This document shows, piece by piece, positions 1 to 18,814 of a stretch of 64,000 nucleotides of DNA. The notes beneath the pieces were generated by a model. It ran no database searches, was not told the origin of the DNA, and worked only from the letters and a program-made list of their open reading frames with translations. Both the position numbers and the translations under genes were made by a program. Origin of the DNA: Myxococcota bacterium (lineage in GTDB: Bacteria > Myxococcota > Kuafuiibacteriia > Kuafuiibacteriales > Kuafuiibacteriaceae); NCBI GenBank assembly GCA_050331295.1, contig JBHJGZ010000007.1, positions 350,422 to 414,421 of the forward strand, in the 5' to 3' direction. The stretch's first letter is position 1; every line of letters begins with the position of its first letter.

Positions 1-60
1 CTGGCCGGCGAGGTTCCGGAGGGTCGACTCGGCATCGGTCCAGCAGGTGCGAAACGGCTC

Positions 61-1392
61 ATGAGCATCGCGCCCGCCGCGACGCCGACGGTGACCATTG
101 ATCAGGTGGCGGATCTGCACCGTCGCCTCAAGGCTCGATCCGGACCTGGCGCTGCAAAGGAGCGAGACCGCTGGTTGAATGAGCTGATGCAACGCTGCAC
201 GCGGGAGGAGCAGGCTTACTTGGTGGGCCTGTGGACGGGTGGCCTGAGGCAGGGTGCGCTCGAGAGTTTGGTGGTTGATGCCATCGCCGACGCGGCTCGG
301 ATCCCGGTCGAGCAGGTCCGCCGAGCTCAGATGCTGGCCGCCGACATCGGAAGGGTTGCGGAACTTGCCATGACCCATGGCTCCGAAGGCCTCGCTGCCT
401 TTCGGCTGGAGCTCTTTCGACCCGTTCAACCGATGCTCGCTAGCACCGCCGAGGACATCGAAAGCGTGTTTCATCAGGTCGAGGATCCATGGATAGAGAC
501 CAAGATCGACGGCGCTCGGGTTCAGATTCACAAGGACGACGACGAAATTCGAATCTTCAGCCGGAGGTTGAACGAGGTCACCGGTCATCTACCCGACGTT
601 GTGAAGAGGATTCAGGCGCTGCCGGTGAGACGGACGATATTGGATGGAGAGACCATCGCCCTTCGAAACGATGGAACTCCTCATCCCTTCCAAGTGACGA
701 TGCGCCGCTTCGGTCGCCGCACTTCAGCGGCCGAACTTCCGCTTTCAGTCTTCATTTTCGACTGCCTGAAGGTGGACGACCAAGATCTGTGGGAGGCCCC
801 GGCTCGGCACCGGCTGGCGGCCTTGTCCGAACGGGTGCCGGAGGACCTCAGACCCCTTCGCGTGGACCATCCGAGTCAGGCGGACGCGGTCCGCTTCCTG
901 GAAGCCTGCCTTACGGCAGGCCACGAGGGGGCCATGTTGAAGTCTGGGCGAGCTGCGTACGAAGCAGGCCGAAGGGGGTCCCATTGGCTGAAGCTGAAGC
1001 ACGCTCATACCGTCGACCTGGTGGTGATCGCGGCCGAATGGGGATCGGGACGGAGACAGGGATGGCTCAGCAATCTTCATCTGGCCGCGCCGAACGAGGA
1101 GGGAACACTGGTCATGCTGGGAAAGACCTTCAAGGGACTGACCGACGAAGCATTGGCCCTCCAGACCCGCTTTCTGCTGGAGCGAGAGATCGGCCGAGAT
1201 GGCCACGTCATTCGGGTGCGCCCCGAACTGGTGGTGGAGGTGGCGTTCAGCGATGTTCAATACAGTCCACACTATCCAGGCGGTATGGCGCTTCGATTTG
1301 CCCGAGTGAAGCGGTTTCGGTTCGACAAGGGTCCGGAGAGTGCAACGCCGCTCCAAAGCGTTCGGGCCATTTACGAAGGTACGGAGGCCTGA
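61..1392 (+). CDS. ATP-dependent DNA ligase (adenylation plus OB domain)
   Basis: Motif I KxDG present (ETKIDGARVQIH); ligase motifs further downstream (FDCLKVDD, WLKLK); 443 aa. The ORF starts near the window edge, so the true N-terminus is uncertain. Confidence 0.8.
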   Translation: MSIAPAATPTVTIDQVADLHRRLKARSGPGAAKERDRWLNELMQRCTREEQAYLVGLWTGGLRQGALESLVVDAIADAARIPVEQVRRAQMLAADIGRVAELAMTHGSEGLAAFRLELFRPVQPMLASTAEDIESVFHQVEDPWIETKIDGARVQIHKDDDEIRIFSRRLNEVTGHLPDVVKRIQALPVRRTILDGETIALRNDGTPHPFQVTMRRFGRRTSAAELPLSVFIFDCLKVDDQDLWEAPARHRLAALSERVPEDLRPLRVDHPSQADAVRFLEACLTAGHEGAMLKSGRAAYEAGRRGSHWLKLKHAHTVDLVVIAAEWGSGRRQGWLSNLHLAAPNEEGTLVMLGKTFKGLTDEALALQTRFLLEREIGRDGHVIRVRPELVVEVAFSDVQYSPHYPGGMALRFARVKRFRFDKGPESATPLQSVRAIYEGTEA

Positions 1393-1430
1393 GTCTGGTC
1401 GGTCCGAAGGGTCGATCCGTCGCCTCGAGC

Positions 1431-2282
1431 TCAAGTCGGCAGGTTCAACCGCCACGCATGGATCCGCGACACGAGGAGCATTGGGTCCCGAAACACGAGG
1501 CTGCGACCGGCGGGCCCTCGTCCGTCCGTGTATACGAGCGTCCGGTAACGTGACGGGATCTTGGAAGCCAACGATTGGGACGTGTCGGCTGCAGAGTCGC
1601 GTCCACGAAAGAACAGAGCGGGAGTCCGACAGCGCCGCAAATCCACCTCGTAGACCATGCCTCGACTCCGAATCGTGCCGAGCCGCATCTGACGCGCCAA
1701 GTCCCTGACGACTCCGCGGCTCACGTCGGCATCCCAGCCGAACCAGGATGCTGGAAACCTTCCAAGGCTCCATGCCGCGCTCGATGCAAGTTGAGATGCC
1801 AAAGCTGAAGCGGTGGGGACGCGGCCGTCGGGAAAGTCATCGCTTTCCACCACCACGACGCCCTGCACCGCGGTGGGGTGCCGGGCCGCGTACAGGAGCC
1901 CCAGTTGGCCGCCGAAACCATGCCCGGCCGCGAGGATCGGAGCGTCTGGGAAGGCCGCACGAAGGGCATCCCGCTGAGCCAACAGATCGAACTCCACCAT
2001 TTCTCGATAACCGAAGTCGCCGCGGGCCGATTCGGTGCTGGTCCCATGCCCTCGAAGGTCTGCGAGCACCAGTCGGAAGCCGTGGTCGGCAGCGGCATGG
2101 CGGAGAGGAGTATAGCGACGAGCACACCGGCCCAGATCCGGCTGAAACCACAGAATGGGCGCATTGAGCGAGAGGCTGTCGGTCACCCACAAGCGGCTGC
2201 GAGGGCCATCGGCGCTCTGGACCGTCAACCATTTATCGGGAGAGACGTGCTGCTCGAGCCCTTCCTTTTCCAAGGAGCCCAT
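1431..2282 (-). CDS. alpha/beta-fold hydrolase
   Basis: 283 aa; ADLRGHGTS and AAGHGFGG nucleophile-elbow-like motifs typical of alpha/beta hydrolases. It is convergent with the ligase gene. Confidence 0.65.
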   Translation of the reverse strand: MGSLEKEGLEQHVSPDKWLTVQSADGPRSRLWVTDSLSLNAPILWFQPDLGRCARRYTPLRHAAADHGFRLVLADLRGHGTSTESARGDFGYREMVEFDLLAQRDALRAAFPDAPILAAGHGFGGQLGLLYAARHPTAVQGVVVVESDDFPDGRVPTASALASQLASSAAWSLGRFPASWFGWDADVSRGVVRDLARQMRLGTIRSRGMVYEVDLRRCRTPALFFRGRDSAADTSQSLASKIPSRYRTLVYTDGRGPAGRSLVFRDPMLLVSRIHAWRLNLPT

Positions 2283-2296
2283 GGTGCACGTGCTCC

Positions 2297-3079
2297 ATGC
2301 CCAGCCTGAACCTTCGAAACAAGTCCTGCCTGGTCACCGGCGCTTCCTCCGGGATTGGCGCGGCCATGGCTCGCGCTTTGGCCAACGCGGGGCCGCGACT
2401 CACCCTGGTAGCCCGACGACGAGAACGACTGGAACAGGTTGCGGCATCGCTCCCCGGGGCTACCGAGGTGAAGGTCGTCGTCGCCGACCTCCGGTCGGAA
2501 TCGGCGAGAGCGGAGGTCGCCCAGGCATGCCCATCGCCTGACGTTGTCATTCTCAACGCCGGCGTCAGCCAGCGGGCGCCGGTGGCGGAGATGGATATCC
2601 ATATGCTCCGAAGCATCATGGAACTGAACTTCTTTTCCGCCACGGACCTGACGTTTCGCTTCCTCCCCGGCATGCTGGAGCGAAACTTCGGTCATTTCGT
2701 GGTCATCAGCAGCGTGGTCGGCTATGTGTCCACGCCCCTACGGAGCGGCTACGCGGCTTCCAAACATGCCCTCCACGGTTTTTACGAGGCGCTCCGTGCC
2801 GAGACGGCCGGCACCGGGGTAGGCGTCACCATGGCCGTTCCCGGCTACGTCCGGACCGAGGTCGGACAACAGGCCCTCCGGCCCGATGGACCCGCGAATC
2901 ATCCGGTCGAGCCTCGGGGCATGGACCCGGACCGGGCCGCTCACCAGATCGTCGAAGCCTTGAAGCGGATGGCCCCCGAGGTCTACGTGGGAGGCACCGA
3001 ACTGGCTGCCATCTACCTTCGACGCTTCGTTCCGGCTCTGGTCCGCAGGTTCGGACCCCGCTGGGCTCCCGAAGACTGA
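2297..3079 (+). CDS. SDR family NAD(P)-dependent oxidoreductase
   Basis: N-terminal TGASSGIG Rossmann motif and catalytic YAASK (YxxxK) motif; 260 aa. Confidence 0.85.
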   Translation: MPSLNLRNKSCLVTGASSGIGAAMARALANAGPRLTLVARRRERLEQVAASLPGATEVKVVVADLRSESARAEVAQACPSPDVVILNAGVSQRAPVAEMDIHMLRSIMELNFFSATDLTFRFLPGMLERNFGHFVVISSVVGYVSTPLRSGYAASKHALHGFYEALRAETAGTGVGVTMAVPGYVRTEVGQQALRPDGPANHPVEPRGMDPDRAAHQIVEALKRMAPEVYVGGTELAAIYLRRFVPALVRRFGPRWAPED

Positions 3080-3086
3080 GCGGCGT

Positions 3087-5372
3087 TCAGAGGACTTTGG
3101 TCACCACGTCGAACAATTCCTCGGCCGTGAACGGCTTGTGGAGGAGGGGCGTCTCGGGGTCCCATCCATGCCGCTCGAGCTCGGTGCCAGGATAGCCGGA
3201 TACGAAGAGCACCCGAAGCTCCGGATTCTTTTCCTTCAGACGGCTTGCCACGGCGGGCCCCGAGATCTCCGGCATCACGACATCGGACACCAGGAGGTCG
3301 ATGGGGGTCACCGAAGCGGCGGAAATCGCTTCTTCGGCGGTGTGAACCAGCACGACGCGAAACGCCATGCGTTCCAGCATTCGCATCATGGTCTGACCCA
3401 CACCCAGATCGTCCTCCAGCACCATGATCGTTCGGCGGCGAAGCGAGGTGGGCGTAGTCGCGGTCGGAGGCAGGTCGCCGGTGGGATCTTGGTCGGTGCA
3501 CGGGAGCCAGATCCTGACCGTGGTCCCTCGTTCTGGCTGACTCTCGAGGTCCAGTGCCCCGCCGCTCTGGCGGATGATGGCGTACGATGTAGCAAGGCCC
3601 AATCCGGTTCCTTTGCCGGGTCCCTTGGTGGTGAAGAAAGGCTCGAATGCTCGTTCTACCGCCTCCGGAGCCATTCCCTGGCCATTGTCTTGGACCGTAA
3701 CCTGGCACCATCGTTCGTTCTCGCCTTGAGAAGGAAGGTGGGCCGGCGCAGATTCGGAAGAGCGCAGTTCGATCTTCACGTTCCCTCCGTCCGGCATCGC
3801 ATCACGCGCGTTGATGAGCAGGTTCATGAGAACCTGATCGAACTGGCGCGGATCGACGACCACCGTGATGGGACCCGGCTCGACGCTGATGTCCATCTTG
3901 ACCCGTTCCCCCAACATCCGACGCCACAGCGGAGCCGATTCCGCGATCAAGCCACCGATGTCGGTACGTCGCCGATGTCCCTCTTGCCTCCGGGCGACGG
4001 TGAGAAGCCGCTGCGTCATGGCTCGACCCCGTTCGGCCGCAAGAAGAATCTCGTCGACCAGTTCGTCGATCACCGAAAGCTCGTGCTCTCCTTTGAGAAG
4101 TTCGCCGCTACCAAGAATGGTCGTCAGAAGATTGTTGAAATCGTGAGCCACTCCCCCGGCCAAGCGACCAAGGCTTTCCAGGCGTTGCGCATGCTGAGCA
4201 GTTTCTCGCTCGACCCGCTGCTGCGTCACATCCTGGATCACGCCATAGAGCCGATGCTGGGAGATACTGAGTTCGTCCCGGTAGAGCCAAAGCCGCATGA
4301 AACGAGGACGTCTGGTGTCATTGCCCAACCTGGCTTCGAACTCCCACTCTCGGCGGCTGCCTTCGAACACTCGTTGAAACCCCTCGCTCACCTTCGATCG
4401 GTCCGCTGGGTCGAACATGTCCAGGAACTGCTCGATGGCGACGTCACCCCCGAGGTCAATGTTCAACACCGCCGCGGCCTGACTGGAGAGTTCGACCGTC
4501 TTATCGTCGTGAATGTAGGTGAAGCCGCCTATCTCCGCGACCTGTGCGCTGAGCTCTAGCGAACGCACGAAGCGCTCCCGACGCTCTTCTGGAGTCACAT
4601 CCCATCCTTCGACCATCATCATCGGACGCTCTTCTGAAAACGGTCGAAGCAAACAGCATGAAATCCACATTGCGGTGGGCTCCGTTTGAGACCGAAGCTT
4701 GAACTGCAGTGACGTCTGTTCCTGATGCTTCGCGCCCTTGACCGCTGCCTTCATGAGCTCCACGTCGTCTGGCTCGATGGACCACGCGTCCTGGGACCAG
4801 AGCGGTTCACCAATTCGATGACTAAAGGTTCGGCGCGCAACTTGATTGGCCTCGACGACGCACCCGTCCTCGTCGAGGATCCAAAAACAAACCGACGCGG
4901 CCCGGAAGGCACCGAGAAACATGTGGTGACGGCGACTGAGCGCCTCTTCCGTCGATTTCCTTTCGTCGATGTCCATGTGAATCGTGGTCCAGGTCATCGT
5001 GCCATCCGAGAGGCGTAGCGGTGCTCCCGTTCCCTCTAGCCAGTGGATCGATCCATCGAAGTGACGAACGCGATATTCACATCGCCAAACCGAATGATTG
5101 TGAGCCGACGACCGGAGGGTCTCTCGGAGGCGCGCACCGTCTTCCTCGAGGACGTTGGGTAGCACCGGGTCGTTCCGGGGAAGACGTTCTTCCGCTTCCA
5201 TCCCGACAATGCGGATGACGTTCGGACCCCAGTATGGAACTTCAAAGGCTCCGTCGGCAGTAAGTGAGATCCGCTGCACGAATCCCGGGAAACTCACCGG
5301 CAATTCCGAAAAACCGTCAGAAGCAGAGATACCGGCGTTCTCATCGGCTTCCGACGACCCCGGCCCGCTCAT
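3087..5372 (-). CDS. PAS-domain hybrid sensor histidine kinase with C-terminal receiver domain
   Basis: PAS repeats, HisKA H-box (GGVAHDFNNLLTTILG), HATPase_c G-boxes (DNGQGM, GTGLGL) and a REC domain (VLEDD...DVVMP). ATG at 5372 (MSGPG) lies 10 nt after the coxE stop; the longer ORF-track start at 5507 would overlap coxE. Confidence 0.85.
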   Translation of the reverse strand: MSGPGSSEADENAGISASDGFSELPVSFPGFVQRISLTADGAFEVPYWGPNVIRIVGMEAEERLPRNDPVLPNVLEEDGARLRETLRSSAHNHSVWRCEYRVRHFDGSIHWLEGTGAPLRLSDGTMTWTTIHMDIDERKSTEEALSRRHHMFLGAFRAASVCFWILDEDGCVVEANQVARRTFSHRIGEPLWSQDAWSIEPDDVELMKAAVKGAKHQEQTSLQFKLRSQTEPTAMWISCCLLRPFSEERPMMMVEGWDVTPEERRERFVRSLELSAQVAEIGGFTYIHDDKTVELSSQAAAVLNIDLGGDVAIEQFLDMFDPADRSKVSEGFQRVFEGSRREWEFEARLGNDTRRPRFMRLWLYRDELSISQHRLYGVIQDVTQQRVERETAQHAQRLESLGRLAGGVAHDFNNLLTTILGSGELLKGEHELSVIDELVDEILLAAERGRAMTQRLLTVARRQEGHRRRTDIGGLIAESAPLWRRMLGERVKMDISVEPGPITVVVDPRQFDQVLMNLLINARDAMPDGGNVKIELRSSESAPAHLPSQGENERWCQVTVQDNGQGMAPEAVERAFEPFFTTKGPGKGTGLGLATSYAIIRQSGGALDLESQPERGTTVRIWLPCTDQDPTGDLPPTATTPTSLRRRTIMVLEDDLGVGQTMMRMLERMAFRVVLVHTAEEAISAASVTPIDLLVSDVVMPEISGPAVASRLKEKNPELRVLFVSGYPGTELERHGWDPETPLLHKPFTAEELFDVVTKVL

Positions 5373-5382
5373 GTTGCGAACG

Positions 5383-6594
5383 TTAGTGAAACCGCCCCGG
5401 AAACGCAAAATGCTTGCCGTCCCGCTCCGCTCTCTCCCGATTCGGACGCGATAGCAGGCTCGCAAGTTGTTCAAGGCTTGCAAGGTCATGGACAGGACGA
5501 AAGTCATCTACGTGGGGCAAAATGGCGGCGACACCCCGAGCCTTAGGTTGAAACCCGGCGTAACGAAGCAGCGGGTTGAGCCAAACCAAGCGTCGGCAGG
5601 AACGTCGCAGGCGCGCCGTCTCCGCTCCCAGGTCAACCTCGGCGTCTCGGTCCAAACCGTCCGTGACCAACAAGACCCACGCCCCATGGGCCAAGACCCG
5701 ACGACGCCACACCCGGTTGAATTCCCGAAGGCAGCCCCCGATTCGCGTTCCACCCGACCAGTCGAGGACTTCCTGGCCAATGCGGGCCATGGCGGCGTCT
5801 GGATCGCGTTGCCGCAACCAACGCGTCACCGGAGTCAAACGTGTCCCGAAGAGGAATGTGTGCACTCGATCTCGGTCGTTGGTCACCCCGTGTATCAAAT
5901 GGAGAAACATTCGACTGTACCGCTCCATCGAACCGGAGATATCGCAGAGCACCACCAACGGTCGAGGGCGGGTTCGGGGAGTCTTCCGGCGGAGAACGAC
6001 CGCATCTCCTGCGGTTCGCAGGCTGGACTGCATGGTCTTTCTTGCGTCGATATCTTTTCCGTTTCGTCGTGGCATGGTGCGGCGAACCGGGTTCTCCGGG
6101 GTGACGCCCTTCATGCGACGCAAGGCCATTTTCACTCGTCTGAGCTCATCGCCGCTCAGCTGGTCGAAGTCCTTGTGTCGAAGGCTTTCGACGTTGGAAG
6201 CGGTCATCGCGGCATCGAAATCCAACGGGACATCCTGCTCTCGGGGTCGCGGCGGTTCTCGAGGACCTCGAAACGCTTCGTGGATGCGCGTTGCCCCGGG
6301 TTTTGCGAGATTGCGGGAGGAAACATCTTCGGCACGGGGCAGGAGCATCTCGAGGGAGGAGGAAAAGGAGGGATCCCTAAAGAATCGATCGAACGCTTCC
6401 TTGAAAAGGGCCCGCTCTTCCGATCGATGAACATAGACGGCGTGAAGTCCCCAGAAGAGCGTCTCACGGTCTTGGAGTCCCAGGCGTTCCGTCACCTGCA
6501 GAGCCAAGAGTTGGGCGTCGGGACCGGCGGAAAGCCCGAGCCGACGAAGTACCCGTCCAAAGGCCACGAGATTCTCGGTGAGGACGGTGGTCAC
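5383..6594 (-). CDS. coxE: CoxE-like VWA domain protein (Mo hydroxylase maturation)
   Basis: VWA MIDAS motif LCDISGSM; N-terminal region LTENLVAFGRVLRRLGL is typical of CoxE. Proposed GTG start at 6594 overlaps the upstream stop as GTGA; the ORF-track start at 6768 would overlap the ligase gene by 177 nt. Confidence 0.75.
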   Translation of the reverse strand: MTTVLTENLVAFGRVLRRLGLSAGPDAQLLALQVTERLGLQDRETLFWGLHAVYVHRSEERALFKEAFDRFFRDPSFSSSLEMLLPRAEDVSSRNLAKPGATRIHEAFRGPREPPRPREQDVPLDFDAAMTASNVESLRHKDFDQLSGDELRRVKMALRRMKGVTPENPVRRTMPRRNGKDIDARKTMQSSLRTAGDAVVLRRKTPRTRPRPLVVLCDISGSMERYSRMFLHLIHGVTNDRDRVHTFLFGTRLTPVTRWLRQRDPDAAMARIGQEVLDWSGGTRIGGCLREFNRVWRRRVLAHGAWVLLVTDGLDRDAEVDLGAETARLRRSCRRLVWLNPLLRYAGFQPKARGVAAILPHVDDFRPVHDLASLEQLASLLSRPNRERAERDGKHFAFPGRFH

Positions 6595-8252
6595 AGGCGA
6601 CCTTGCTCGTAGTCCTCGGCCAGTTTCACCCGCTGCAGTTTGCCGCTCGTGGTCTTGGGTATACTGGACACCGGCAAGACCAAGGACACACCGAATCCGG
6701 TTTGGGTTGTGACGACATGACGGATTTTCTGAGCCAGCGCTTCGAACGCTTCTGGACTCCTTCGCCATTGAACGAATACAGCCAGAACCTCTCGCTCCCC
6801 GTCTCGAAGCCCGACTGCGGCCACCTTGCCGATTTCTACTTCGTCCAGGCTCGACACCACGGTCTCGATATCATGTGGAAAGATGTTCTGGCCGTTGACG
6901 ATGGCCATTTCCTTACGACGACCGGCGACATGCAATTCCCCTCGATGTAGAAATCCCAGATCTCCCGTGTCGTACCAGCCGTCCACCCGCGGATCGAAGT
7001 CTCCTTCCTCGGTCCGAACACTGGAGGTGACGTTGAGCCCACGAATCCAGATCGGTCCCACGACACCGTCCTCGACCGGCTGCGGTCGGTCCGAACCATC
7101 GCCGATCCGCACTTCGGTATGCCGGATCGGTCGACCACATGGCACGATGTCCAATCGGTCCTGGTCACTGTCCGGATCTCGTACCGGATCACCGAGTCCG
7201 AGACGGGTTCGGTCCACCGATGTCTTTCGGAGTCCGGAGCCGAGCGGCGGCATGGTCACGGCCAGGCTCGCCTCCGCTAGGCCGTACACTGGAAACATCG
7301 CGTCGGGATTCAGTCCGTGAACCGCGAAAGTGTCCAAGAATCGTTTCACCAATGCATAGGAAATCGGCTCCGCGCCGTTGAAGATCACTCGAACAGGAGA
7401 CAGATCAAGACCTTCGAAACGCTCTCGTTTGTACGCTCGCAAGGTATGTTGATAAGCGAAGTTCGGGCCGCTGGTGACCGTAACCCGATGAGCAGCCGCC
7501 TCCTGAAGCCACGTTAAGGGCCGGCGAACGAAACGTTCGGTGGGCATCAAAGTGTGGTTCGTTCCTCGCATGAACGGAGTAAGATGCCCGCCAATCAGGC
7601 CCATGTCATGGGTGAGCGGCATCCATGCATGCGGTCGGTCGTCCGGTTCGAGCTGGATCGCCTCGATGATCGCGGTCGTGTTGGCGACCAGATTTCGATG
7701 CGTCAGCTTTATGCCTTTCGGTAAGCGCGTCGAGCCCGAGCTGAACTGAACGTAGGCAAGGTCGTCTGGTCGCACATCGTGATGAACACCGGATGGACCG
7801 TGCAACGAAGCTTCTCGGAGCTCGGCGACGGTCACGAGTCTGCTCTTCAGTCGAGACAGATCTCGTCCCGCTGATTCGCTCGAGGCGAACGCAGCGATTC
7901 GCTCCCAGCTTTGTTCATCCGTCACGAAGAAGGGGTCCTCGAAGAGACCGAGCACCCGCCAAACTTTTCGCTGATGCTCTTCTGTCGCCCCGGTGCTCAC
8001 CGGCACTGGAACCGCTCCGCCCAACAAGCACGCCCAAAAAAGCTCCAAGAAATCCTGTGGCGCACTCACATAGAAGCCGACGAAGTTTCCCGGTCGAACC
8101 CCTTGGCTCTGAAGGCGACCCAGACGTCGTGTCGCCCTGTCGAGCAACTCCTCGTAGGTCGTGAACACCGGGTTGGGTCCCGTCAGATACCCGATCCGAT
8201 GTTGGGGTCGGAGAGGATGCATCAGGGCATCCACCAGCGTCTCTGGTGTCAT
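6591..8252 (-). CDS. adenylate-forming enzyme (fatty acyl-AMP ligase / acyl-CoA synthetase superfamily)
   Basis: AMP-binding motifs FSSGSTRLPKG, YGLAEA, WYDTGDLG and C-terminal SGKLQR lysine; 553 aa; ATG start confirmed at 8252. Confidence 0.8.
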   Translation of the reverse strand: MTPETLVDALMHPLRPQHRIGYLTGPNPVFTTYEELLDRATRRLGRLQSQGVRPGNFVGFYVSAPQDFLELFWACLLGGAVPVPVSTGATEEHQRKVWRVLGLFEDPFFVTDEQSWERIAAFASSESAGRDLSRLKSRLVTVAELREASLHGPSGVHHDVRPDDLAYVQFSSGSTRLPKGIKLTHRNLVANTTAIIEAIQLEPDDRPHAWMPLTHDMGLIGGHLTPFMRGTNHTLMPTERFVRRPLTWLQEAAAHRVTVTSGPNFAYQHTLRAYKRERFEGLDLSPVRVIFNGAEPISYALVKRFLDTFAVHGLNPDAMFPVYGLAEASLAVTMPPLGSGLRKTSVDRTRLGLGDPVRDPDSDQDRLDIVPCGRPIRHTEVRIGDGSDRPQPVEDGVVGPIWIRGLNVTSSVRTEEGDFDPRVDGWYDTGDLGFLHRGELHVAGRRKEMAIVNGQNIFPHDIETVVSSLDEVEIGKVAAVGLRDGEREVLAVFVQWRRSPEAFEALAQKIRHVVTTQTGFGVSLVLPVSSIPKTTSGKLQRVKLAEDYEQGRL

Positions 8253-8295
8253 CGCAGCGGACCAGGCGCATGTGAGGCGAGCCGGGAGTCAAGTC

Positions 8296-9168
8296 CTACA
8301 TCGGCTCCAGAAGGCCCGCGATGCCCTCGGCCCGGAGTCTTTCGATGTCTTCCCGCACCTTCAGCACCACGCCCAAGGTCTGGTCCACGAGTTCCGGTGA
8401 CAGGCGATGTTCCCGCAGAGCCAAGATCGCGCGTGTCCAGTCCAAAGACTCGGCGACCCCCGGAACCTTGAAGAGGTCCTTGGCCCGCAGCCTTTGAACG
8501 AATGCCACCACCGATCGGGCCAATTGTTCATCGACGGCCGGATATCGGGCGCGCACGATGGCCAGTTCCCGATCCAGGTCCGGGTAGTCCACCCAGTGGT
8601 ACAGGCATCGGCGCTTGAGTGCATCATGGATCTCGCGGGTTCGGTTCGAGGTGATCACGACGACCGGGGGCCGGTCGGCCCGGATGGTCCCGATTTCGGG
8701 AATGCTGACCTGCGCGTCGGAAAGAACCTCCAGCAAGAACGCCTCGAAGGGCTCATCCGTGCGGTCCAGCTCGTCGATCAACAGAACCGGGGGCCCTTCG
8801 AGGTGAGGTTCCAACGCCTGAAGCAGGGGGCGCTTGATCAGGAACCGGTCCCCAAACACATCTGGCTCGACGCCTCGAGGTTCGGCCAGCCGGATCTCGA
8901 TCATCTGTCGAGGATAGTTCCATTCGTACACCGCGGAAGCGAGGTCGAGGCCCTCATAGCACTGAAGCCGGATCAGACGTCGACCGAGCTGCTCGGCCAG
9001 GACCTTGGCGACTTCCGTCTTTCCGACTCCGGCCTCGCCTTCCAGCAACAACGGCCTCTCCAGCTCAAAGGCCAGGTAGATCGCGGTGCACAGGTCCCTC
9101 CCAGCCACGTACTGCCCTCGCTGAAGGAGACGAGAGACCTCATCGACGTTTTGAAATGGAGCTCCCAA
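8296..9168 (-). CDS. coxD: CoxD-like MoxR-family AAA+ ATPase
   Basis: Walker A GEAGVGKT; MoxR/CoxD-like N-terminus; 290 aa; start codon is TTG at 9168. Confidence 0.85.
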   Translation of the reverse strand: MGAPFQNVDEVSRLLQRGQYVAGRDLCTAIYLAFELERPLLLEGEAGVGKTEVAKVLAEQLGRRLIRLQCYEGLDLASAVYEWNYPRQMIEIRLAEPRGVEPDVFGDRFLIKRPLLQALEPHLEGPPVLLIDELDRTDEPFEAFLLEVLSDAQVSIPEIGTIRADRPPVVVITSNRTREIHDALKRRCLYHWVDYPDLDRELAIVRARYPAVDEQLARSVVAFVQRLRAKDLFKVPGVAESLDWTRAILALREHRLSPELVDQTLGVVLKVREDIERLRAEGIAGLLEPM

Positions 9169-9186
9169 CGGTCTGACGCCAGGGAA

Positions 9187-9978
9187 TCAGGCGGCAGCGA
9201 CCGCACGGGCCGCCATGACCTTCACCAAGTGGGCGCGGTAATCGGGCCCGGCATCGAGTTCGTCCAAGAAGTCGGTCGGGTCGACCTCGATGGAGGCCAA
9301 CGCTTCGGGTGCAAAATTTTTGGAAAGGGCTCGCTCCATGTCCGTCAGGCGGAACACTTTCGGACCGGCCCCCGTCACTGCGACGCGAACCTCATCTCCC
9401 CAGGTCGCCACCATCACCCCCACGATGGCATACTTGGACGCGGGATTGGGGAACTTCGCATAAGCCGCCCGGTCGACCGCCCGAAAGTGAACTGCCGTGA
9501 TGATCTCGTCTCTTTCGAGAGCCGTCTCGAACAGGCCGGTGAAGAACGCGTCAGCGTCGATTGTGCGTTGGTCCGTCTCCACCCGTCCATCCAAGGCCAC
9601 CACCGCCGCTGGATAGTCGGCTTGCGGGTCGGCATGGGCAATCGAGCCCCCCAACGTCCCCCGATTTCGGACCTGGGCGTCCCCGATGCCGTGCGCCAAC
9701 TTCGCCAGCGCCGGAAGACTCTGTCGGATCAGGCGGGAGGTTTCCACCTCGGCATGGGTGACGCTGGCGCCTACCACCACCCGGCCGTCCCGGACCTCGA
9801 TGCCTTTCAGCTCACGCAGTCCCTTCAAGCAGATCAAGTCGCTTGGCGCGGCTAGGTCCAGCTTCATGACGGGGATCAGGCTCTGGCCCCCACCCAGGAA
9901 CTTCCCGTCCACGCGAGCCGCCAGCAATGCTTTCGCTTCTTCCACCGTCGAGGGTCGATGAAACTCGAACGATTCCAT
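9187..9978 (-). CDS. coxM: Mo-hydroxylase FAD-binding medium subunit (CoxM/CutM-like)
   Basis: FAD-binding PCMH domain with the characteristic (F/L)LGGGQSL(I/L) motif (KFLGGGQSLIP), which it shares with CoxM and XdhB-type subunits; 263 aa. Confidence 0.9.
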   Translation of the reverse strand: MESFEFHRPSTVEEAKALLAARVDGKFLGGGQSLIPVMKLDLAAPSDLICLKGLRELKGIEVRDGRVVVGASVTHAEVETSRLIRQSLPALAKLAHGIGDAQVRNRGTLGGSIAHADPQADYPAAVVALDGRVETDQRTIDADAFFTGLFETALERDEIITAVHFRAVDRAAYAKFPNPASKYAIVGVMVATWGDEVRVAVTGAGPKVFRLTDMERALSKNFAPEALASIEVDPTDFLDELDAGPDYRAHLVKVMAARAVAAA

Positions 9979-9988
9979 CCGCTATCTC

Positions 9989-12361
9989 CTATCCATCTCG
10001 TTTCGCGGTCTGGATGGCCTTCCAGACTCTCTGCGGCGTGGCCGGCATGTCGAGGTCCTTCACCCCCAAGGGTGCCAGCGCATCCAAAACGGCATTGATC
10101 ACCGCCGGCGGGCTCCCGATCGCCCCCGCTTCACCACAGCCCTTGGACCCCAAAGGATTGTGGGTGCACGGCGTCACGTGGTTTCCGGTCTTGAAGAAAG
10201 GAAGGTCGGCCGCCCGCGGCATGCAGTAGTTCATATAGCTGGCCGTGAGAAGCTGTCCCGTCTCATCGTAGGTGCAGGCTTCGTAGAGGGCCTGACCAAT
10301 GCCCTGCGCCAGACCTCCTTGAATCTGTCCGTCGACGATCAACGGATTGATGACCCGTCCCACGTCATCTGCCGCCGCCATGTCGATCAGCTGCACGACG
10401 CCGGTGTCGGGGTCCACTTCCACCTCCGCAATGTGGCATCCGCCAGGAAACGTGAAGTTCTTCGGGTCATAGAAGGAACTCTCTTCCAGGCCGGGCTCAA
10501 GCTCCTCGAGCGGGTAGTTGTGAGGAACATACGCGGAGAACGCAACCTCTGCGAAGGCCTTCTTGCGGTCCGTACCCTTCACCGCAAAATGTCCGTCCGA
10601 GAATTCGATGTCACCCGCATCGGCCTCCAGCAGATGTGCTGCAATCTTCTTTCCCTTCTCGATCACTTTCTCGGTGGCCTTCGCGATGGCGGAACCTCCG
10701 ACCGGCAGCGAACGCGAGCCATACGTCCCCATTCCGAAGGCGGTGTTCGCGGTATCGCCGTGGACGAGTTCCACGGACTCGAACGAGATCCCAAGTTTGT
10801 CCGCCACGATTTGTGCGAAAGCGGTCTCATGCCCCTGGCCGTGACTATGAGTGCCGGTGAAGACGGTCACGGAGCCAGTGGGATGAACTCGAATCGTCGC
10901 TGATTCGTACAGTCCGGCGCGAGCGCCCAGGGCACCTGCCAAGGCGGACGGCGCGAGTCCGCAGGCCTCGATATACGTCGACAAGCCGAGTCCCCGCAGC
11001 TTGCCAGCCTTCTTCGAAGCTTCTCGTCGTTTCTCGAAGTTGGCGTAATCGATCTTTTCCAGCGCGAGATCCAACGTCGCCTCGAAGTTTCCGATATCGT
11101 ATTCGAGGGCTACCGGTGTCTGATAAGGAAAGTCGCTCTCCTTGATCATGTTCTTTCGTCGAAGTTCGACCCGGTCGAATCCACATTCCCGCGCCGCCTT
11201 TTCCACCAGCCGCTCGAGTAGGTACGTCGCTTCCGGACGACCTGCCCCGCGGTAGGCATCGACCGGAGCCGTGTTCGTGAAAAAGGCCTGCACTTCGCAA
11301 TAGATGGCGGGAGTCTTGTAAACTCCAGCCAAGAGCGTAGCGTACAGATACGTGGGAACGGCCGGAGCGAACGTGGAGAGATAGGCTCCCATGTTGGCTT
11401 TGGTCTGAACCCGCAGTCCCAAGAAGTTTCCGTCAGCATCCAACGCAAGCTCGGCGTGGGACCGATGATCGCGGCCGTGCGCATCGGTTTGAAACGATTC
11501 CGTCCGCTCGGCCGTCCATTTGACCGGACGTCCCAATCTCTTGGACGCCCAGGTCACCACCGCCTCCTCGGCATAGTGGTAGATCTTCGAACCAAACCCA
11601 CCCCCGACATCGGGAGCCACGACGCGAAGTTTATGTTCGGGCAGATTGAGGACGAAAGCACCCATCAAGAGGCGGATCAGATGGGGATTCTGAGTTGTCG
11701 TATAGAGGGTATGATGGTCGGAGGACGCGTCGTACTCTCCGATGCAGCTCCGCGGCTCGATGGCATTCGGCACCACTCGGTTGTTGATCAGATCGATGGC
11801 TACGACGTGCGTAGCCTTCGAAAAGGCTGCATCGGTCGCCGCCTTGTCCCCCAACTCGAAGTCGTAGCACTGATTGCCCGGGGCCAGTTCCCAAACCAAG
11901 GGCGCATTGGGAGCGACCGCCTGTTCGAGATTCGCAACGACGGGTAGGTCCTCGTATTCCACGGCCACCGCTTTCGCGGCGGACTTCGCCTGGGCTTGAG
12001 TTTCGGCCACGACAACCGCGATCTGATCTCCGACGTGCCGGACGACGCCGTCGGCGAGGGGGGGGTGCGGCGGCTCCTTCATGGGGGAACCGTCGCGACT
12101 GTGGATCTGCCATCCGGTCGGGATGCTTCCCACCCCGTCCGCCTTCATGTGTTCGCCGGTGAGGACCGCAAGAACACCCGGTAGCTTCTCCGCATCGGAC
12201 GCGTCGACCTTCACTCGGGCGTGGGCCATCTGCGACCGAACGAAACATGCATAGGCCTGGAATGGCCGAACCATGTCATCGGTGTATTGGCCTTTGCCGG
12301 TGAGAAACCGCGTGTCCTCCTTGCGAGTGACTCGATCGCCGATCCGTCCCGCGAGTGTCAT
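9989..12361 (-). CDS. coxL: aerobic-type CO dehydrogenase-like Mo-hydroxylase large subunit, form II (AYRGAGR motif)
   Basis: Ald_Xan_dh_C/C2 domains; active-site loop [14 protein letters not shown] at 12361 ([16 protein letters not shown]) sits 2 nt after the coxS stop; the 119-codon upstream extension of the ORF is rejected. Confidence 0.9.
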
Positions 12362-12363
12362 GT

Positions 12364-12843
12364 CTACTTTGCCTCCTTCATGCTCTGAGCCGCGGCCTGC
12401 ACCGCCTTCACGATGCCGTGATATCCAGTACACCGGCAAATGTTGCCTTCGAGCCACTCGCGAATGTCGCCTTCGCTCGGTGCCGCATTGTGCTGCAGAA
12501 GGTCGAGGGCACTCATCACCATACCCGGAGTGCAATAACCGCACTGTAGGCCATGATGTTCTTTGAATGCAGCCTGAATCGGATGAAGCTCGCCATTCGA
12601 AACACCTTCGATGGTGGTGACATCGGCTCCGTCCGCTTCTACGGCCAACATGCTGCACGCCTTCACTGATCGGCCGTCCACCATCACTGTGCAGGCGCCG
12701 CACTGGCTCGTATCGCAACCGACGTGAGTGCCGGTGAGACGAAGCCGTTCCCTCAAGAGTTCAACCAGCAGCGTTTGGGACTCGACCTGGACCTCGACTC
12801 CCTTTCCGTTCACGTTCATTTGAATCGAATGCATCTTGTTCAC
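12364..12843 (-). CDS. coxS: (2Fe-2S)-binding small subunit of Mo-hydroxylase (CoxS-like)
   Basis: Plant-type ferredoxin motif [11 protein letters not shown] and second cluster motif CGYCTPG...CRCTGY; 159 aa. Confidence 0.95.
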
Positions 12844-13057
12844 CGAGTGATGGAGGCGGCGTCGAGCCGCCCGGGCCCGGAGTCTTCGGTCTCCCCCTCT
12901 CCGACGTCAAGCCGGGGCCACCCGCCCCAAACTGCGCCGTCTCGACCGGAACTTGACCGAATGCGTTAGCGCGTCGCGTCGGTCCGAAGGGAAGACCGCA
13001 TCCAAAGTGTTCGACCTATGGCGGTTTGTTCCGCAATGAGATCTGCGTTCTCCCACC
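12844..13057. promoter_or_regulatory. divergent intergenic region upstream of the coxS operon (minus) and the MFS transporter (plus)
   Basis: 214-bp gap with no convincing ORF; presumed promoter region for the cox-like operon; no motif verified. Confidence 0.25.
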
Positions 13058-14332
13058 GTGCGTCGCGCATTCACATTGGCCGCCCTCATCATGGCGGGCG
13101 AGTCCATCTACACGCTGCCCTACGCCCTTCGTCGGGACTTCGCTCCAGTGATCCTGGAGGTCAGCGAGATGTCGTCGACCGAGCTCGGGCAGCTCAGCTC
13201 GATCTTCGGAGTGTTCGCGCTCCTCTGCTACTTCCCTGGAGGGTGGATCGCAGACCGCTTTCCCGCCCGCTCCTTGATGACCTTCTCGTTGCTCAGCACC
13301 GGCGCCCTCGGTCTGGGACTGGCCACACTTCCGAGTTTTTGGGGCATGCTGATGCTGTTCGCGGCCCTTGGTATCACCACCATCCTCACGTTCTGGGCTG
13401 CGCTCATCAAGGCCACGCGTGCTTGGGGCGGCGCCACCCAGCAAGGACTGGCCTTCGGTCTCCTGGACGGAGGCCGCGGGGTCGTCGACGCCCTCTTGGC
13501 TTCGACTGCGGTACTCACCTTTTCCCTAGTCGGAGGGGACGCAGCGGGCCTTAGGGGTGTCATCCTGCTGATGGCGTCGAGTTCGACGATGGCCGGCATC
13601 TGGGTCTGGTTTGCGGTTCGGGACGATCGGAGTGTCGAATCTTCCGCTCCCGGTGGAGCCATGCCCTCTCAACTCTTGGCGGTCGTTCGAATGCCCATCA
13701 CGTGGCTTCAAGCGGTCATCATCGTCGTGAGCTTTTCCTGTTTCTGGGGCACTTTCGACCTCTCGTCCTACGCGGTGGACAGCTTCGGGTGGTCCTCCGC
13801 GTCAGCCGCGTCTCTGTCGGCCGCAACACGATGGCTCCGTCCCATTGCCGCCCTCGGGGCCGGACTTCTGGCCGATCGAACGTCGGCCACTCGCGCCATC
13901 GTGGTCTGCTTCGTGAGTCTCATCGTCTCATACGGAGCGTTCGCGACGGTTCCGAGCATCCAAGGTCCGGTGTGGATTCTTTGGGCCAATGCATCCGCGG
14001 TTTGTCTCTTCAGCTTCGCGCTTCGAGGCGTGTACTACGCCATCATGGAGGAAGCCGATGTTCCGGTCCATCTGACCGGAACCACCGTTGGCGTCGTTTC
14101 CGTACTGGGCTTCACACCCGACATCTTCGTTCCGTTGATCCTCGGCTCCCTCGTCGACGGCTATCCAGGAGGACAAGGGCACCGACTCTTCTTCGCCGGT
14201 CTCTCCGCTCTTTGCTGCGTGGGATTGGCGGCAGCGGTGTTCGCGGCGCGCCTGACCGCGAGAAGCCGGACTTCGGCCTCCACGGCTTTGGACACCGGTC
14301 GGCCTACCGAAGCGGTTCGACGCCCTTCCTGA
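13058..14332 (+). CDS. MFS transporter
   Basis: Twelve predicted hydrophobic segments and MFS-like loop motif (GGWIADRFPARS); 424 aa. Confidence 0.7.
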   Translation: MRRAFTLAALIMAGESIYTLPYALRRDFAPVILEVSEMSSTELGQLSSIFGVFALLCYFPGGWIADRFPARSLMTFSLLSTGALGLGLATLPSFWGMLMLFAALGITTILTFWAALIKATRAWGGATQQGLAFGLLDGGRGVVDALLASTAVLTFSLVGGDAAGLRGVILLMASSSTMAGIWVWFAVRDDRSVESSAPGGAMPSQLLAVVRMPITWLQAVIIVVSFSCFWGTFDLSSYAVDSFGWSSASAASLSAATRWLRPIAALGAGLLADRTSATRAIVVCFVSLIVSYGAFATVPSIQGPVWILWANASAVCLFSFALRGVYYAIMEEADVPVHLTGTTVGVVSVLGFTPDIFVPLILGSLVDGYPGGQGHRLFFAGLSALCCVGLAAAVFAARLTARSRTSASTALDTGRPTEAVRRPS

Positions 14333-15947
14333 GATCCGCCCAGGTGTCGGGTGTGTCGATATCGACATGGACGCCACCATCCCGAACCTCGATGCGCTCC
14401 ACCTCATCTCGATGTCGAGCGATCAAGCCCCGAGCCCCTTCGTCGCCCGTGACCTGTTCAAGCTCCCCGAAGAACTTCCGGCTCCACAGCACCGGATGCC
14501 CTCGCTTTCTTCCATGGGTCGGCACGCGAATGGACCCCGGCCCGTGGGGCTTGAAGTCTTCCAAGAGCGTCCGCACGTGTTCTTCACTCACGAACGGCAT
14601 GTCTCCGAGGAACACCATGACACCGTCGACTTCGGTCGGAAGTGCGCGGATGCCGGTCCGCAAGGACGTACTCATGCCCTCACCGTACCGTTCATTGTGA
14701 ACGAAGTGGCAAGGGAGACCTCGCAACGCGGCCTTCACTTCCTGATGCTCGTGTCCGGTGACCACGACCACTGGGTCAAGGCCCGCCCTGACCGCCGCTT
14801 CCACTGGATGGCGCACCATGGGCTGACCTTTCACGTTCAGCAGCAGTTTATTGCGGCCACCCATCCTCGACGAACGTCCGGCAGCCAAGATCACCGCCGA
14901 CACCGCGACCGGCGCGCTCGATTCGGCGTCGGCGTTGCCGTACTGAGAACGAGGTGTCGGACGAAGCTCCACCTCGTGCAACAGGCCCCCGACTCCCAAG
15001 CCCATCAAGTCCTGGCCCGTCACCGGGACACCGGCCGCGATGCGCCAGAGGACCCAATCGAAGCCCGACGGCTTCGAGGACCGCGCACACCCCGGCAGCC
15101 CGAGGACCGGTATGTCGAGCTTCGAACCGGCCCGTGCCAAGAGGATCAGATTTCCCGGGTCGACCGGCATTCCAAAATGATCGACACGACCTCCGGCGTG
15201 TTCCACCGCGGACGGCAATACATCTTGCCGGTCACAAATCGCCGAGGCGCCGAGAATGAGAACCAGATCGGTAGCCAGCCCGTCTCGTATCGCGCGCGCC
15301 ACCGCCTCCGGCTCGTGCTCCACCACGACCGTCCGATCGATCTCTCCGCCCAAGAATGCCAACCGGGCTCGCTGGACGTCCTCGGTCCTTTGAAGAAGGC
15401 GCGTGGAAGTGTGGTCGAATGCGGTCAATATCAGGCGCGCCCGGAGTGGGAGAAAAGGACGAACCGAAACCAAGGCTTCCCTCGCGGCCAAGGAGCGACG
15501 GACATCGGACACCACCGCCATCGGTAGCGCGAAAGGAATGATCTTGAGGGTGGCGACCATCTCCCGGGCCTCCACCGGTCGAAACGAGGCGAGCGTGGAA
15601 AGGGCCACCGCCTCGTGGGTTCGATTGAAGTCGTCGACGCCGGAACTATCGACGGTCAGCAAGCCGCGATGTTCGGCGAAGAAGTTGATGCGCCCGGTTC
15701 GCGCCGGACCGCTTCGAACCCCAGGGCCCTCTACCCAAGAACGCAGCTGCTCGGCTGCGTCGTCTTCATGAATGTCATCGGCCTCGAGCCGCACTACGGT
15801 CAGTTCTCGAACTCCTGCCCGGACCAACGACGCCAACTCCGCTGCATTCAGGCGATGGCCTTTTGGGAGGCTGATCCCGGAAACCTTCAGTTTGTGAGCC
15901 AGCAAACAAGCCTCTGCCTCCTGGACGGGAAGGTTCGAGAGCTTCAT
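14304..15947 (-). CDS. molybdopterin-binding (MoCF_biosynth-like) domain fused to MobA/MocA-like molybdenum cofactor nucleotidyltransferase
   Basis: C-terminal NTP_transf_3 motifs (VILAAGRSSRMG...NKLL, DMPFV); N-terminal MoeA/CinA-like molybdopterin-binding domain. ATG at 15947 forms an ATGA overlap with the xdhC stop; the upstream ORF extension is rejected. Confidence 0.75.
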   Translation of the reverse strand: MKLSNLPVQEAEACLLAHKLKVSGISLPKGHRLNAAELASLVRAGVRELTVVRLEADDIHEDDAAEQLRSWVEGPGVRSGPARTGRINFFAEHRGLLTVDSSGVDDFNRTHEAVALSTLASFRPVEAREMVATLKIIPFALPMAVVSDVRRSLAAREALVSVRPFLPLRARLILTAFDHTSTRLLQRTEDVQRARLAFLGGEIDRTVVVEHEPEAVARAIRDGLATDLVLILGASAICDRQDVLPSAVEHAGGRVDHFGMPVDPGNLILLARAGSKLDIPVLGLPGCARSSKPSGFDWVLWRIAAGVPVTGQDLMGLGVGGLLHEVELRPTPRSQYGNADAESSAPVAVSAVILAAGRSSRMGGRNKLLLNVKGQPMVRHPVEAAVRAGLDPVVVVTGHEHQEVKAALRGLPCHFVHNERYGEGMSTSLRTGIRALPTEVDGVMVFLGDMPFVSEEHVRTLLEDFKPHGPGSIRVPTHGRKRGHPVLWSRKFFGELEQVTGDEGARGLIARHRDEVERIEVRDGGVHVDIDTPDTWADLRKGVEPLR

Positions 15948-16947: not shown

Positions 16948-17032
16948 GCAATGACGCTAGTGCGGCTGCACGGGGCTGGCCAGGGGAGAGCGTCCGAAGC
17001 ACCGACCAAATGTTCCGTCGGCGGTTCATGGG
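16948..17032. promoter_or_regulatory. divergent intergenic region between xdhC (minus) and sufS (plus), presumed to carry both promoters
   Basis: 85-bp non-coding gap between divergently oriented starts; no motif verified. Confidence 0.25.
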
Positions 17033-18795: not shown

Positions 18796-18814
18796 GAATC
18801 GACGACAAAGCGGC

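Follow-up and report, generated by a model that had tools for sequence, protein, structure and literature searches.

The cox cluster examined here raises the question of whether an adenylate-forming enzyme has become part of a molybdenum-hydroxylase pathway. Its gene lies between coxD and coxE in a Myxococcota genome, within the 64,000-nt stretch of DNA that was analysed as a whole (hereafter the window). The initial annotation proposed that the enzyme activates a carboxylate for the hydroxylase, in analogy to ligases of furoyl-CoA and 4-hydroxybenzoyl-CoA metabolism, or acts in cofactor or active-site maturation. Our results point in another direction. The enzyme appears to be of the fatty acyl-AMP ligase (FAAL) type, a class of the ANL superfamily, and coxD-ligase-coxE is probably the gene order of a single lineage, in which the ligase is functionally separate from the cox genes.

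On the minus strand of the window, the cluster reads coxS-coxL-coxM-coxD-ligase-coxE. It comprises a coxS-like 2Fe-2S subunit (12364..12843; Fer2_2, 2.7e-35), a form-II coxL-like molybdopterin subunit (9989..12370) with MoCoBD_1 and MoCoBD_2 domains and the AYRGAGR signature in its translation, a coxM-like FAD-binding subunit (9187..9978; PF00941, 2.1e-46), and a coxD-like MoxR AAA ATPase of 290 aa (8296..9168) that matches Pfam AAA and AAA_5 as well as the NCBIfam MadB-family ATPase model. The ligase gene (6591..8252) starts with ATG and encodes 553 aa without a fused carrier domain; as initially described, its reading frame is intact and matches the AMP-binding family (Pfam PF00501, E = 1.3e-53). 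It is followed by a coxE-like VWA protein of 403 aa (5383..6594; PF05762 VWA_CoxE, E = 1.5e-67), which is 36–52% identical to CoxE of 80 genomes. A PAS histidine kinase with a receiver domain, recognized from its Pfam domains, comes next on the same strand (3087..5372), and an independent gene call from another assembly places its start 10 nt past coxE. On the other side of the cluster, an MFS transporter is encoded on the plus strand (13058..14332; MFS_1, 5.3e-22). The large subunit scored 678 bits against TIGR02416, under the cut-off of 991, and 360 bits against the 4-hydroxybenzoyl-CoA reductase alpha model (cut-off 994.55); in this NCBIfam search it was nearer to the CO dehydrogenase and glyceraldehyde dehydrogenase models than to the latter.

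The same arrangement was found in a diverged relative from another metagenome (contig L001; 64–85% protein identity), and in both the ligase begins 43–46 nt past coxD. Misassembly was ruled out, as the order is common to eight contigs with an identical ligase and to L001. A pseudogene was ruled out as well, given the intact reading frame and the conservation of every catalytic motif. The window contained no second cox cluster or ligase paralogue, and an Rfam scan of positions 1–20000 gave no match.

The junction with coxE is as the initial annotation described it. The TGA stop of the ligase (6593-6591) and the GTG start of coxE (6594-6592) share the GTGA at 6591..6594 on the minus strand, read directly from the junction CAA GGT CGC CTG TGA CCA. 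From the sequence, the GTG at 6594 is the only plausible start, because this reading places the conserved N-terminal motif of CoxE (L..N...F.R.LR..GL) from residue 5 onwards, and because reading by eye found no in-frame start codon in the ~30 codons upstream. Moreover, ATG 6768, the sole other upstream start found, would overlap 58 ligase codons without homology, and the next downstream GTG would truncate the conserved motif. This is further supported by an independent gene caller, which in another assembly arrived at a 403-aa CoxE with a 4-nt overlap. Translation of coxE in the window thus probably depends on that of the ligase. The corresponding coxE start of L001 is an ATG located 60 nt past the ligase stop, and an in-frame GTG overlapping the ligase TGA is also present there, so that conservation of the overlap is not clear. 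In any case, the overlap is an expression link and no evidence of shared chemistry.

The proposed identity as an adenylate-forming enzyme was confirmed and can be narrowed to the FAAL type, which the initial annotation had mentioned. The ANL core motifs (A3 SSGSTxxPKG, A5 YGLAE, A7 TGD, A8 GRxK and the lysine of A10 PKTxSGK) are present as FSSGSTRLPKG, YGLAEA, YDTGDLG, GRRKE and PKTTSGKLQR, with no variation at their core positions among 24 relatives. FAAL models were the top NCBIfam matches, led by NF006624 with 371 bits; the ligase stays below the curated cut-off of every one of them (600 for NF006624), but since these models describe particular subfamilies, such a score excludes those subfamilies and not the FAAL class. 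The best sequence matches in the PDB were 6ULX and EcFAAL (3PBK). Structure prediction agreed with this assignment: in a search with the AF2 model (pLDDT 87), the top 39 Foldseek matches in the PDB were all FAAL-class or FAAL-like adenylation domains, among them LpFAAL, McyG, the olefin synthase FAAL, FadD32 and FadD23, and FAAL-class matches ranked ahead of any CoA ligase (EcFAAL 3PBK, E = 6.5e-46). The ligase also carries a FAAL insertion, taken as a stretch of at least ~20 residues that follows the A5 motif within the N-terminal domain. Compared with E. coli FadD, 27 residues (~346–372) are inserted at the FAAL-specific site, and this segment aligns to EcFAAL with a one-residue gap only.

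In EcFAAL, W224, M231 and F279 together with the helix T252-R258 block the canonical CoA pocket, which accounts for its rejection of CoA (PMC8460268). By alignment, these correspond to W210, M217, F265 and T238-R244 (TERFVRR) of the ligase, and the 24 relatives show no variation at the three bulky residues or at T238, F241, R243 and R244, which make up four of the seven helix positions. E. coli FadD has A/L, F and T at the three pocket sites and a shorter helix segment. The alternative phosphopantetheine pocket of EcFAAL is guarded by T83, P107, P226 and T252. Judged by alignment only, P226 and T252 match P212 and T238, both invariant, while T83 aligns to A64, beside P65, and P107 falls in a 4-residue loop absent from the ligase, with P82 and P84 nearby.

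The C-terminus of the ligase lies directly after the A10 motif. The carrier domains of 109 relatives were used to build an HMM, which found no carrier protein in the six-frame ORFs of the window and of the orthologue loci L001, L002, L004, L006, L007 and L008, a search that covered the loci themselves. The nearest relatives outside the clade are FAAL-ACP didomain proteins, with 42–48% identity over the full adenylation region, an uncharacterised family that is widespread in metagenomes of Gammaproteobacteria and Bacteroidota. By its sequence and predicted fold, the ligase is thus a stand-alone FAAL type, an ACP-less branch of the FAAL-ACP family. A metagenome scan with the ligase-clade alignment and two very conserved peptides retrieved only distant members of the FAAL-ACP family (37–45% identity) and no further contexts of ligase orthologues. 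These served as a negative control for cox linkage, and none of 82 FAAL-ACP loci had a cox gene nearby. A P450 gene lies directly upstream of the FAAL-ACP gene in 59 of 63 loci; the two form a very conserved two-gene cassette, of which we found no description.

If the ligase served the hydroxylase or its maturation, one might expect it at the coxD-coxE junction of other genomes. It was found at none of 77 other informative CoxE loci, which span Alpha- and Betaproteobacteria, Bdellovibrionales and Myxococcota MAGs. At all 77, coxD lies upstream on the same strand and abuts coxE or nearly so; the median gap is 77 nt, and no gap is big enough for a 553-aa gene. In L023, the coxD-coxE junction holds an inositol-monophosphatase-like ORF. 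A literature search on coxD/coxE clusters with acyl-CoA synthetases, and on MadB and MadC as NCBIfam names, gave no relevant result.

Conversely, the ligase is found mostly without cox genes. Its orthologues are 63–75% identical and occur in five genomic contexts, as sampled in nine loci, and cox genes surround the ligase only in the window and in L001. Two of ten orthologue clusters are cox-flanked, and the seven of the other eight that were looked up are all cox-free. Four loci (L002, L003, L006 and L171) show the cox-free order MFS-ligase-kinase, and the three long contigs among them also show a hydrolase and a DNA ligase gene. These neighbours are related to the genes that flank the cox/ligase block in the window, where the MFS transporter and the histidine kinase belong to the same conserved backbone: in L002 and L006, identities to the window are 54% for the MFS protein, 46–48% for the kinase, 46% for the hydrolase and 55–57% for the DNA ligase. 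The MFS gene of L001 is 59% identical to that of the window, and kinase orthologues follow the ligase in L001, L002, L006 and L171. The remaining loci (L004, L007, L008 and L172) represent three further contexts, again cox-free. In a neighbour-joining tree, the cox-flanked loci form one terminal pair (98% bootstrap). With 51% support, the tree favours neither the presence nor the absence of cox genes in the common ancestor of the two locus types, cox and MFS. JBCBRU, a Myxococcota MAG among the 77 other genomes, carries coxSLMDE on contig L009 and its ligase orthologue on a separate contig, L008.

The ligase also has a conserved upstream element. TTGACW lies 29–35 nt ahead of the likely ligase start in all nine orthologue loci; measured from the called starts, it begins 26–41 nt upstream, in all five contexts. 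In the window, it is a −35-box-like TTGACT (8287..8292, minus strand) inside the coxD-ligase spacer, 3 nt past the coxD stop and 34 nt ahead of the ligase ATG. The motif is rare, with 9 occurrences in the window against 42.7 expected and a frequency of 7.5e-5 per strand position across the loci. This position hints at a putative promoter of the ligase's own. No consistent −10 hexamer was found at spacings of 14–19, and in positions 3000–13200 a sigma-70 scan gave no promoter-like site and a terminator scan only background levels of terminator-like sites. As a clade, these ACP-less FAALs of Myxococcota combine a strikingly conserved upstream hexamer with an acceptor that was not found near the orthologues.

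How did the ligase come to lie between coxD and coxE? One possibility is that its gene entered the coxD-coxE spacer of an existing coxSLMDE operon; the alternative is that the cox genes came together around a ligase that was already there. The universal contiguity of coxD and coxE elsewhere, the other insertion at this junction in L023 and the ligase's own TTGACW element are consistent with such an insertion. However, the outer flanks (MFS on one side; kinase, hydrolase and DNA ligase on the other) are the same as in the cox-free ligase loci, which indicates that the ligase has remained in its original place. Nor did we find direct or inverted repeats or scars flanking the ligase, as a mobile insertion might leave, or any compositional anomaly (GC is not anomalous, and GC3 is 0.65, like coxE, with neighbours at 0.67–0.77). 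Insertion of the ligase therefore seems unlikely, and whichever block moved, the function of the ligase would be independent of cox.

Functional partnership with the hydroxylase fares less well. If the ligase activated the carboxylate on which the form-II Mo-hydroxylase acts, giving a thioester or an adenylate, this would fit its retention in the operon of two diverged genomes, and the idea gains some appeal from the fact that form-II CoxL-like enzymes have no known substrate. An organic-anion-type MFS transporter adjoins the cluster, and in loci without cox genes an MFS gene lies 31 nt ahead of the ligase, which suggests an imported carboxylate. Yet most orthologues have no cox neighbours, the other coxD-coxE pairs do without the ligase in 77 of 77 cases, no carrier protein was found nearby, and the large subunit falls short of the 4-hydroxybenzoyl-CoA reductase model. 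Furthermore, the FAAL-type features predict rejection of CoA and argue against the acyl-CoA formation that the furoyl-CoA and 4-hydroxybenzoyl-CoA analogy requires (PMC8460268). We consider this proposal quite unlikely. In a maturation role, the ligase would act together with CoxD (the ATPase) and CoxE (the VWA protein) in assembly of the active site or cofactor, where it might adenylate or acylate an intermediate or a protein of this process. Such a role is suggested by its place exactly between two maturation genes and by its overlap with the coxE start. A component of the Cox maturation module should be regularly present next to coxD and coxE, however, and no such gene occurs in the 77 other clusters. 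Orthologous ligases persist in loci or genomes without an adjacent cox gene, the enzyme has no features beyond those of a standard FAAL, and L023 illustrates that the junction can hold an unrelated gene. A maturation role thus appears hardly credible. It is also very unlikely that a CoA-rejecting FAAL was recruited into the operon to work with the hydroxylase, through delivery of an acyl-adenylate or carrier-bound substrate or through modification of a maturation factor. If it were true, starting coxE off the ligase stop would reflect a stoichiometric partnership, and CoxD/CoxE maturation would for the first time be linked to an adenylating step; a ligase working with the Mo-hydroxylase would also offer a rare hint as to what form-II CoxL-like enzymes act on.

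The functional part of the initial annotation is therefore not supported. It had named a lineage-specific insertion, absent from orthologous clusters and independently expressed, as the finding that would speak against it, and our results largely amount to this: the position of the ligase is lineage-restricted, the 77 other coxD-coxE junctions lack it, its orthologues lie mostly outside cox clusters, and it has its own promoter-like hexamer, although the overlap with coxE in the window is real.

In the reading that we favour, a FAAL-type ligase functionally separate from cox, the enzyme would adenylate a fatty acid or another hydrophobic carboxylic acid, hold the acyl-AMP and reject CoA, and transfer the acyl group to a nucleophile, either a phosphopantetheine arm or some other one, whose gene lies elsewhere. 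It would belong to a backbone of MFS transporter, ligase, histidine kinase, alpha/beta hydrolase and DNA ligase, which is cox-free in related genomes. The coxSLMD-coxE block is ligase-free everywhere else examined, and the two blocks would have been combined only in the window genome and its sister. The ligase would have kept its conserved TTGACW, possibly as a promoter, and coxE of the window genome would have acquired a start that overlaps the stop codon of the ligase. Some points speak against this reading. The arrangement has been kept for some time, since the tight packing is found in two genomes diverged to 64–85% protein identity, and coxE expression in the window looks dependent on the ligase. 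Even so, coxD-ligase-coxE looks like an accident of gene order and not a new part of a Mo-enzyme pathway. The case serves mainly as a caution: genes with no functional connection can come to be tightly packed in an operon and can even share a stop/start overlap, and such cases can be settled by surveying synteny.

In canonical form-II clusters, the genes follow the same order, coxS-coxL-coxM-coxD-coxE, and the proteins of 80 other genomes are 36–76% identical to those of the window, but only in the window and L001 are coxD and coxE split by a 1.66-kb gene. Ligases that feed enzymes of the xanthine dehydrogenase family do exist, namely 4-hydroxybenzoate-CoA ligase with 4-hydroxybenzoyl-CoA reductase and furoyl-CoA synthetase with furoyl-CoA dehydrogenase. 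In these systems, too, an adenylate-forming enzyme stands beside a three-subunit Mo/FeS/FAD hydroxylase. Their ligases are CoA-ligating ANL enzymes, however, whereas the window ligase has CoA-rejecting FAAL features, and its hydroxylase is of the form-II CoxL type and not of the 4-hydroxybenzoyl-CoA reductase type. Ligases of the HbaA/HmfD type would show an open CoA pocket without a FAAL insertion and a conserved co-occurrence with the hydroxylase; the window ligase shows neither, and its pairing is not conserved.

The closer likeness is to the FAALs. The FAAL-ACP didomain proteins have the same insertion and motifs as the ligase clade, but carry a C-terminal carrier domain of ~100 aa that the clade lacks. 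EcFAAL (3PBK) and the Legionella FAAL (3KXW), the best structural matches (28–30% identity, TM about 0.75), likewise have the two-domain ANL fold and all adenylation motifs, and share the insertion, the FAAL helix and the bulky W/M/F residues with the ligase. Unlike these stand-alone FAALs, the ligase has no ACP, PKS or NRPS nearby and is instead embedded in a Mo-hydroxylase operon.

The ligase gene, which encodes an AMP-binding protein of 553 aa (6591-8252), does lie between coxD and coxE, as the initial annotation had stated, and forms part of a compact minus-strand cluster in the window, which derives from an uncultured Myxococcota bacterium. This cluster comprises coxS (12364-12843), a form II coxL (9989-12370) with the AYRGAGR motif seen in translation, coxM (9187-9978), coxD encoding a MoxR-type AAA ATPase (8296-9168), the ligase after a spacer of 43 nt, and coxE encoding a VWA_CoxE protein (5383-6594); no coxF-like gene follows coxE in the window. 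The same gene order was found on 8 contigs with an identical ligase protein, and also on L001, a diverged contig from a different metagenome whose cluster proteins are 64-85% identical to those of the window. Hence, an assembly artefact can be ruled out. The ligase has an unremarkable base composition and no flanking repeats, and our scan of the cluster revealed no outstanding promoter-like or terminator-like signals and no match to an Rfam family. Upstream of the cox cluster, past a divergent MFS gene, the window encodes a fusion of MoCF_biosynth and a MocA-type molybdenum cofactor cytidylyltransferase (14304-16136, minus strand) and an XdhC-family maturation factor (15944-16681, minus strand). 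These ORFs overlap by ~190 nt, so the true start of the fusion gene is probably further downstream than that of its ORF.

The GTGA overlap between the ligase stop and the coxE start is borne out by the window sequence. The ligase ends in CTG TGA, where the G of CTG and the TG of TGA form a GTG at 6594-6592. This GTG is the credible coxE start, because it lies 4 residues ahead of the conserved N-terminal motif of CoxE, no in-frame start codon was seen by eye in the ~30 codons upstream, and an independent gene caller made an identical 403-aa CoxE call with a 4-nt overlap in another assembly. The first start of the coxE ORF is an ATG at 6768. On L001, coxE was called from an ATG 60 nt past the ligase stop, yet a GTG overlapping the ligase TGA lies in frame with this ATG, which follows 63 nt downstream (9653-9718). 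Since L001 thus offers two possible coxE starts, the overlap is not clearly conserved even within this pair.

The ligase is a member of the fatty acyl-AMP ligase (FAAL) class rather than a CoA ligase. The best NCBIfam models were FAAL models, with every score under the curated cut-off (best 371 vs. 600). The best sequence matches in the PDB were the keto-acid-selecting adenylation domain 6ULX, the E. coli FAAL 3PBK, McyG and a Legionella FAAL. When an AlphaFold2 model of the ligase (mean pLDDT 87.3) was used as Foldseek query, the top 39 hits were FAAL-class structures, and the first CoA ligases (MatB chimeras) appeared at rank 40. Alignment with E. coli FadD, which is a bona fide acyl-CoA ligase, shows a 27-residue insertion at ~346-372 in the ligase and its relatives. 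It falls in the stretch from the A5 motif to the following strand, which is the FAAL-specific insertion site. EcFAAL rejects CoA via W224, M231, F279 and the FAAL-specific helix T252-R258 (Patil et al., 2021; PMC8460268). These align to W210, M217, F265 and T238-R244 of the ligase, where W210, M217, F265 and the helix positions T238, F241, R243 and R244 are invariant across 24 relatives. Two of the four guards of the alternative phosphopantetheine pocket (P212, T238) are conserved, and the other two fall in loops of different length. All adenylation motifs are intact, including the A10 lysine, so that the gene looks functional. FAALs are common in Myxococcota, with an average of 2.8 per genome (PMC12820801).

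Grouped by their neighbours, the ligase orthologues occupy five contexts: coxD-ligase-coxE (window, L001); MFS-ligase-kinase with a constant 31-nt MFS-ligase spacer (L002, L003, L006, L171); CoA_binding_2, epimerase, ligase and sigma factor (L004, L005); a 524-533-aa gene without assigned family followed by the ligase (L007, L172); and sigma factor-ligase-PhoX (L008). The three long MFS-type contigs (L002, L003, L006) also have a hydrolase and a DNA ligase downstream. MFS-type flanks are orthologous to genes outside the cox/ligase block of the window (MFS 54%, kinase 46-48%, hydrolase 46%, DNA ligase 55-57% identity), and these shared outer flanks indicate a home locus that the ligase occupies with or without cox genes. 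In a neighbour-joining tree (300 bootstraps), the two cox-flanked ligases paired at the tips (98%), the MFS-type trio formed a separate clade (97%), and the branching between them had only 51% support. A PAS/HisKA/HATPase/receiver hybrid kinase (3087-5372, minus strand) starts ~10 nt past the coxE stop in the window. Its orthologue directly follows the ligase in cox-free loci, and hence this kinase belongs to the ligase backbone, outside the cox block. Cox-free loci of three diverged genomes encode a second MFS transporter, and exactly 31 nt separate its end from the start of the ligase (L002 7969-8001; L006 7300-7332; L171 180-212). With 85 bits against a cut-off of 320, this transporter has weak similarity to L-lactate and oxalate/formate transporters, which suggests a transporter-ligase pair handling an imported carboxylate.

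TTGACT or TTGACA was found upstream of the ligase in all nine orthologue loci aligned, regardless of the upstream gene. In eight of them (window, L001, L002, L004, L006, L008, L171, L172), 29-35 nt separate the end of the hexamer from the start codon. At L007 it lies nearer to the called start, which may be wrong, since this protein has an N-terminal extension. These genomes strongly avoid TTGACW: 42.7 +/- 6.7 copies would be expected in the window, yet only 9 are present (~4.7-fold depleted), the frequency across all loci is 7.5e-5 per strand position, and L001, L171 and L172 each have no copy besides the one before the ligase. The chance of a hexamer within a 16-nt range is ~1.2e-3 per locus. 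The window copy (TTGACT, 8287-8292, minus strand) lies 3 nt past the coxD stop codon and matches the sigma-70 -35 consensus. No Shine-Dalgarno sequence was found before the ligase ATG in the window, and the hexamer-to-start distance would fit a leaderless or very short-leader transcript. Because no consistent -10 hexamer accompanies TTGACW, we only infer that it may be the ligase's own promoter.

Our results are best explained by a resident stand-alone FAAL gene that became sandwiched in a form II cox-like operon in one Myxococcota lineage. Alternatively, the ligase might activate the substrate of the Mo-hydroxylase or act in its maturation, as the initial annotation had proposed. Operon membership of the ligase has outlasted 15-36% protein divergence between the window genome and L001, and in the window the coxE start depends on the ligase reading frame. 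Both proposals are weakened, however, because the pairing is not conserved and the ligase persists without cox neighbours; synteny surveys centred on the ligase and on the cox genes both indicate that the two are not linked. Substrate activation is further at odds with the CoA-rejecting architecture and with a large subunit of non-acyl-CoA type, which scored 360 bits against the 4-hydroxybenzoyl-CoA reductase alpha model (cut-off 994.55). All readings together, a real functional link to the cox system seems rather improbable.

Our cox-centred survey, a CoxE scan of one genome per species, yielded 80 loci at 36-52% identity. coxD was directly upstream of coxE on the same strand in all 77 loci with upstream sequence, where the gap between the aligned segments had a median of 77 nt and a maximum of 1116 nt. 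None of these 77 other junctions had room for the ligase or similarity to it. The closest cox locus, L009 from a Myxococcota MAG, reads MocA-coxSLMDE, and this assembly holds its ligase orthologue on another contig (L008). A single larger gap, in the Proteobacteria groundwater MAG locus L023 (8847-9788, plus strand), contains an unrelated inositol-monophosphatase-like ORF with the motif WILDPVDGTEDF. This is the only intervening gene among the 77, and evidently the coxD-coxE junction can occasionally take unrelated passenger genes.

Close relatives of the ligase comprise ~10 clusters at 63-75% identity, of which the named ones are Myxococcota MAGs; beyond these, identity falls to <=48%. At these lower identities, the relatives belong to a large family of ~655-aa FAAL-ACP didomain proteins, with a carrier domain after the A10 motif. 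Cox genes were absent from the available flanks of all 82 didomain loci. Upstream DNA was long enough in 63 loci, and in 59 of these a cytochrome P450 lies directly upstream of the didomain gene. The P450 (431 aa) and FAAL-ACP genes form a very conserved two-gene cassette (L089 5706-8977; L090 5690-8944; also L091-L170) in Gammaproteobacteria, Bacteroidota and many metagenomes. Its P450 matched no NCBIfam model above cut-off, and a search of the literature for the cassette returned no account of it. In contrast to the didomain family, the window clade ends right after A10, without a carrier domain, and an HMM of the didomain family's carrier domain matched neither the window nor any of six orthologue loci (L001, L002, L004, L006, L007, L008). 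Of remaining interest are the acceptor for this ACP-less clade, the conserved hexamer and a possible, though improbable, link to the form II Mo-hydroxylase. The enzyme is a stand-alone FAAL, an already known class, and the cluster is of a known type with a rare variation in gene order.
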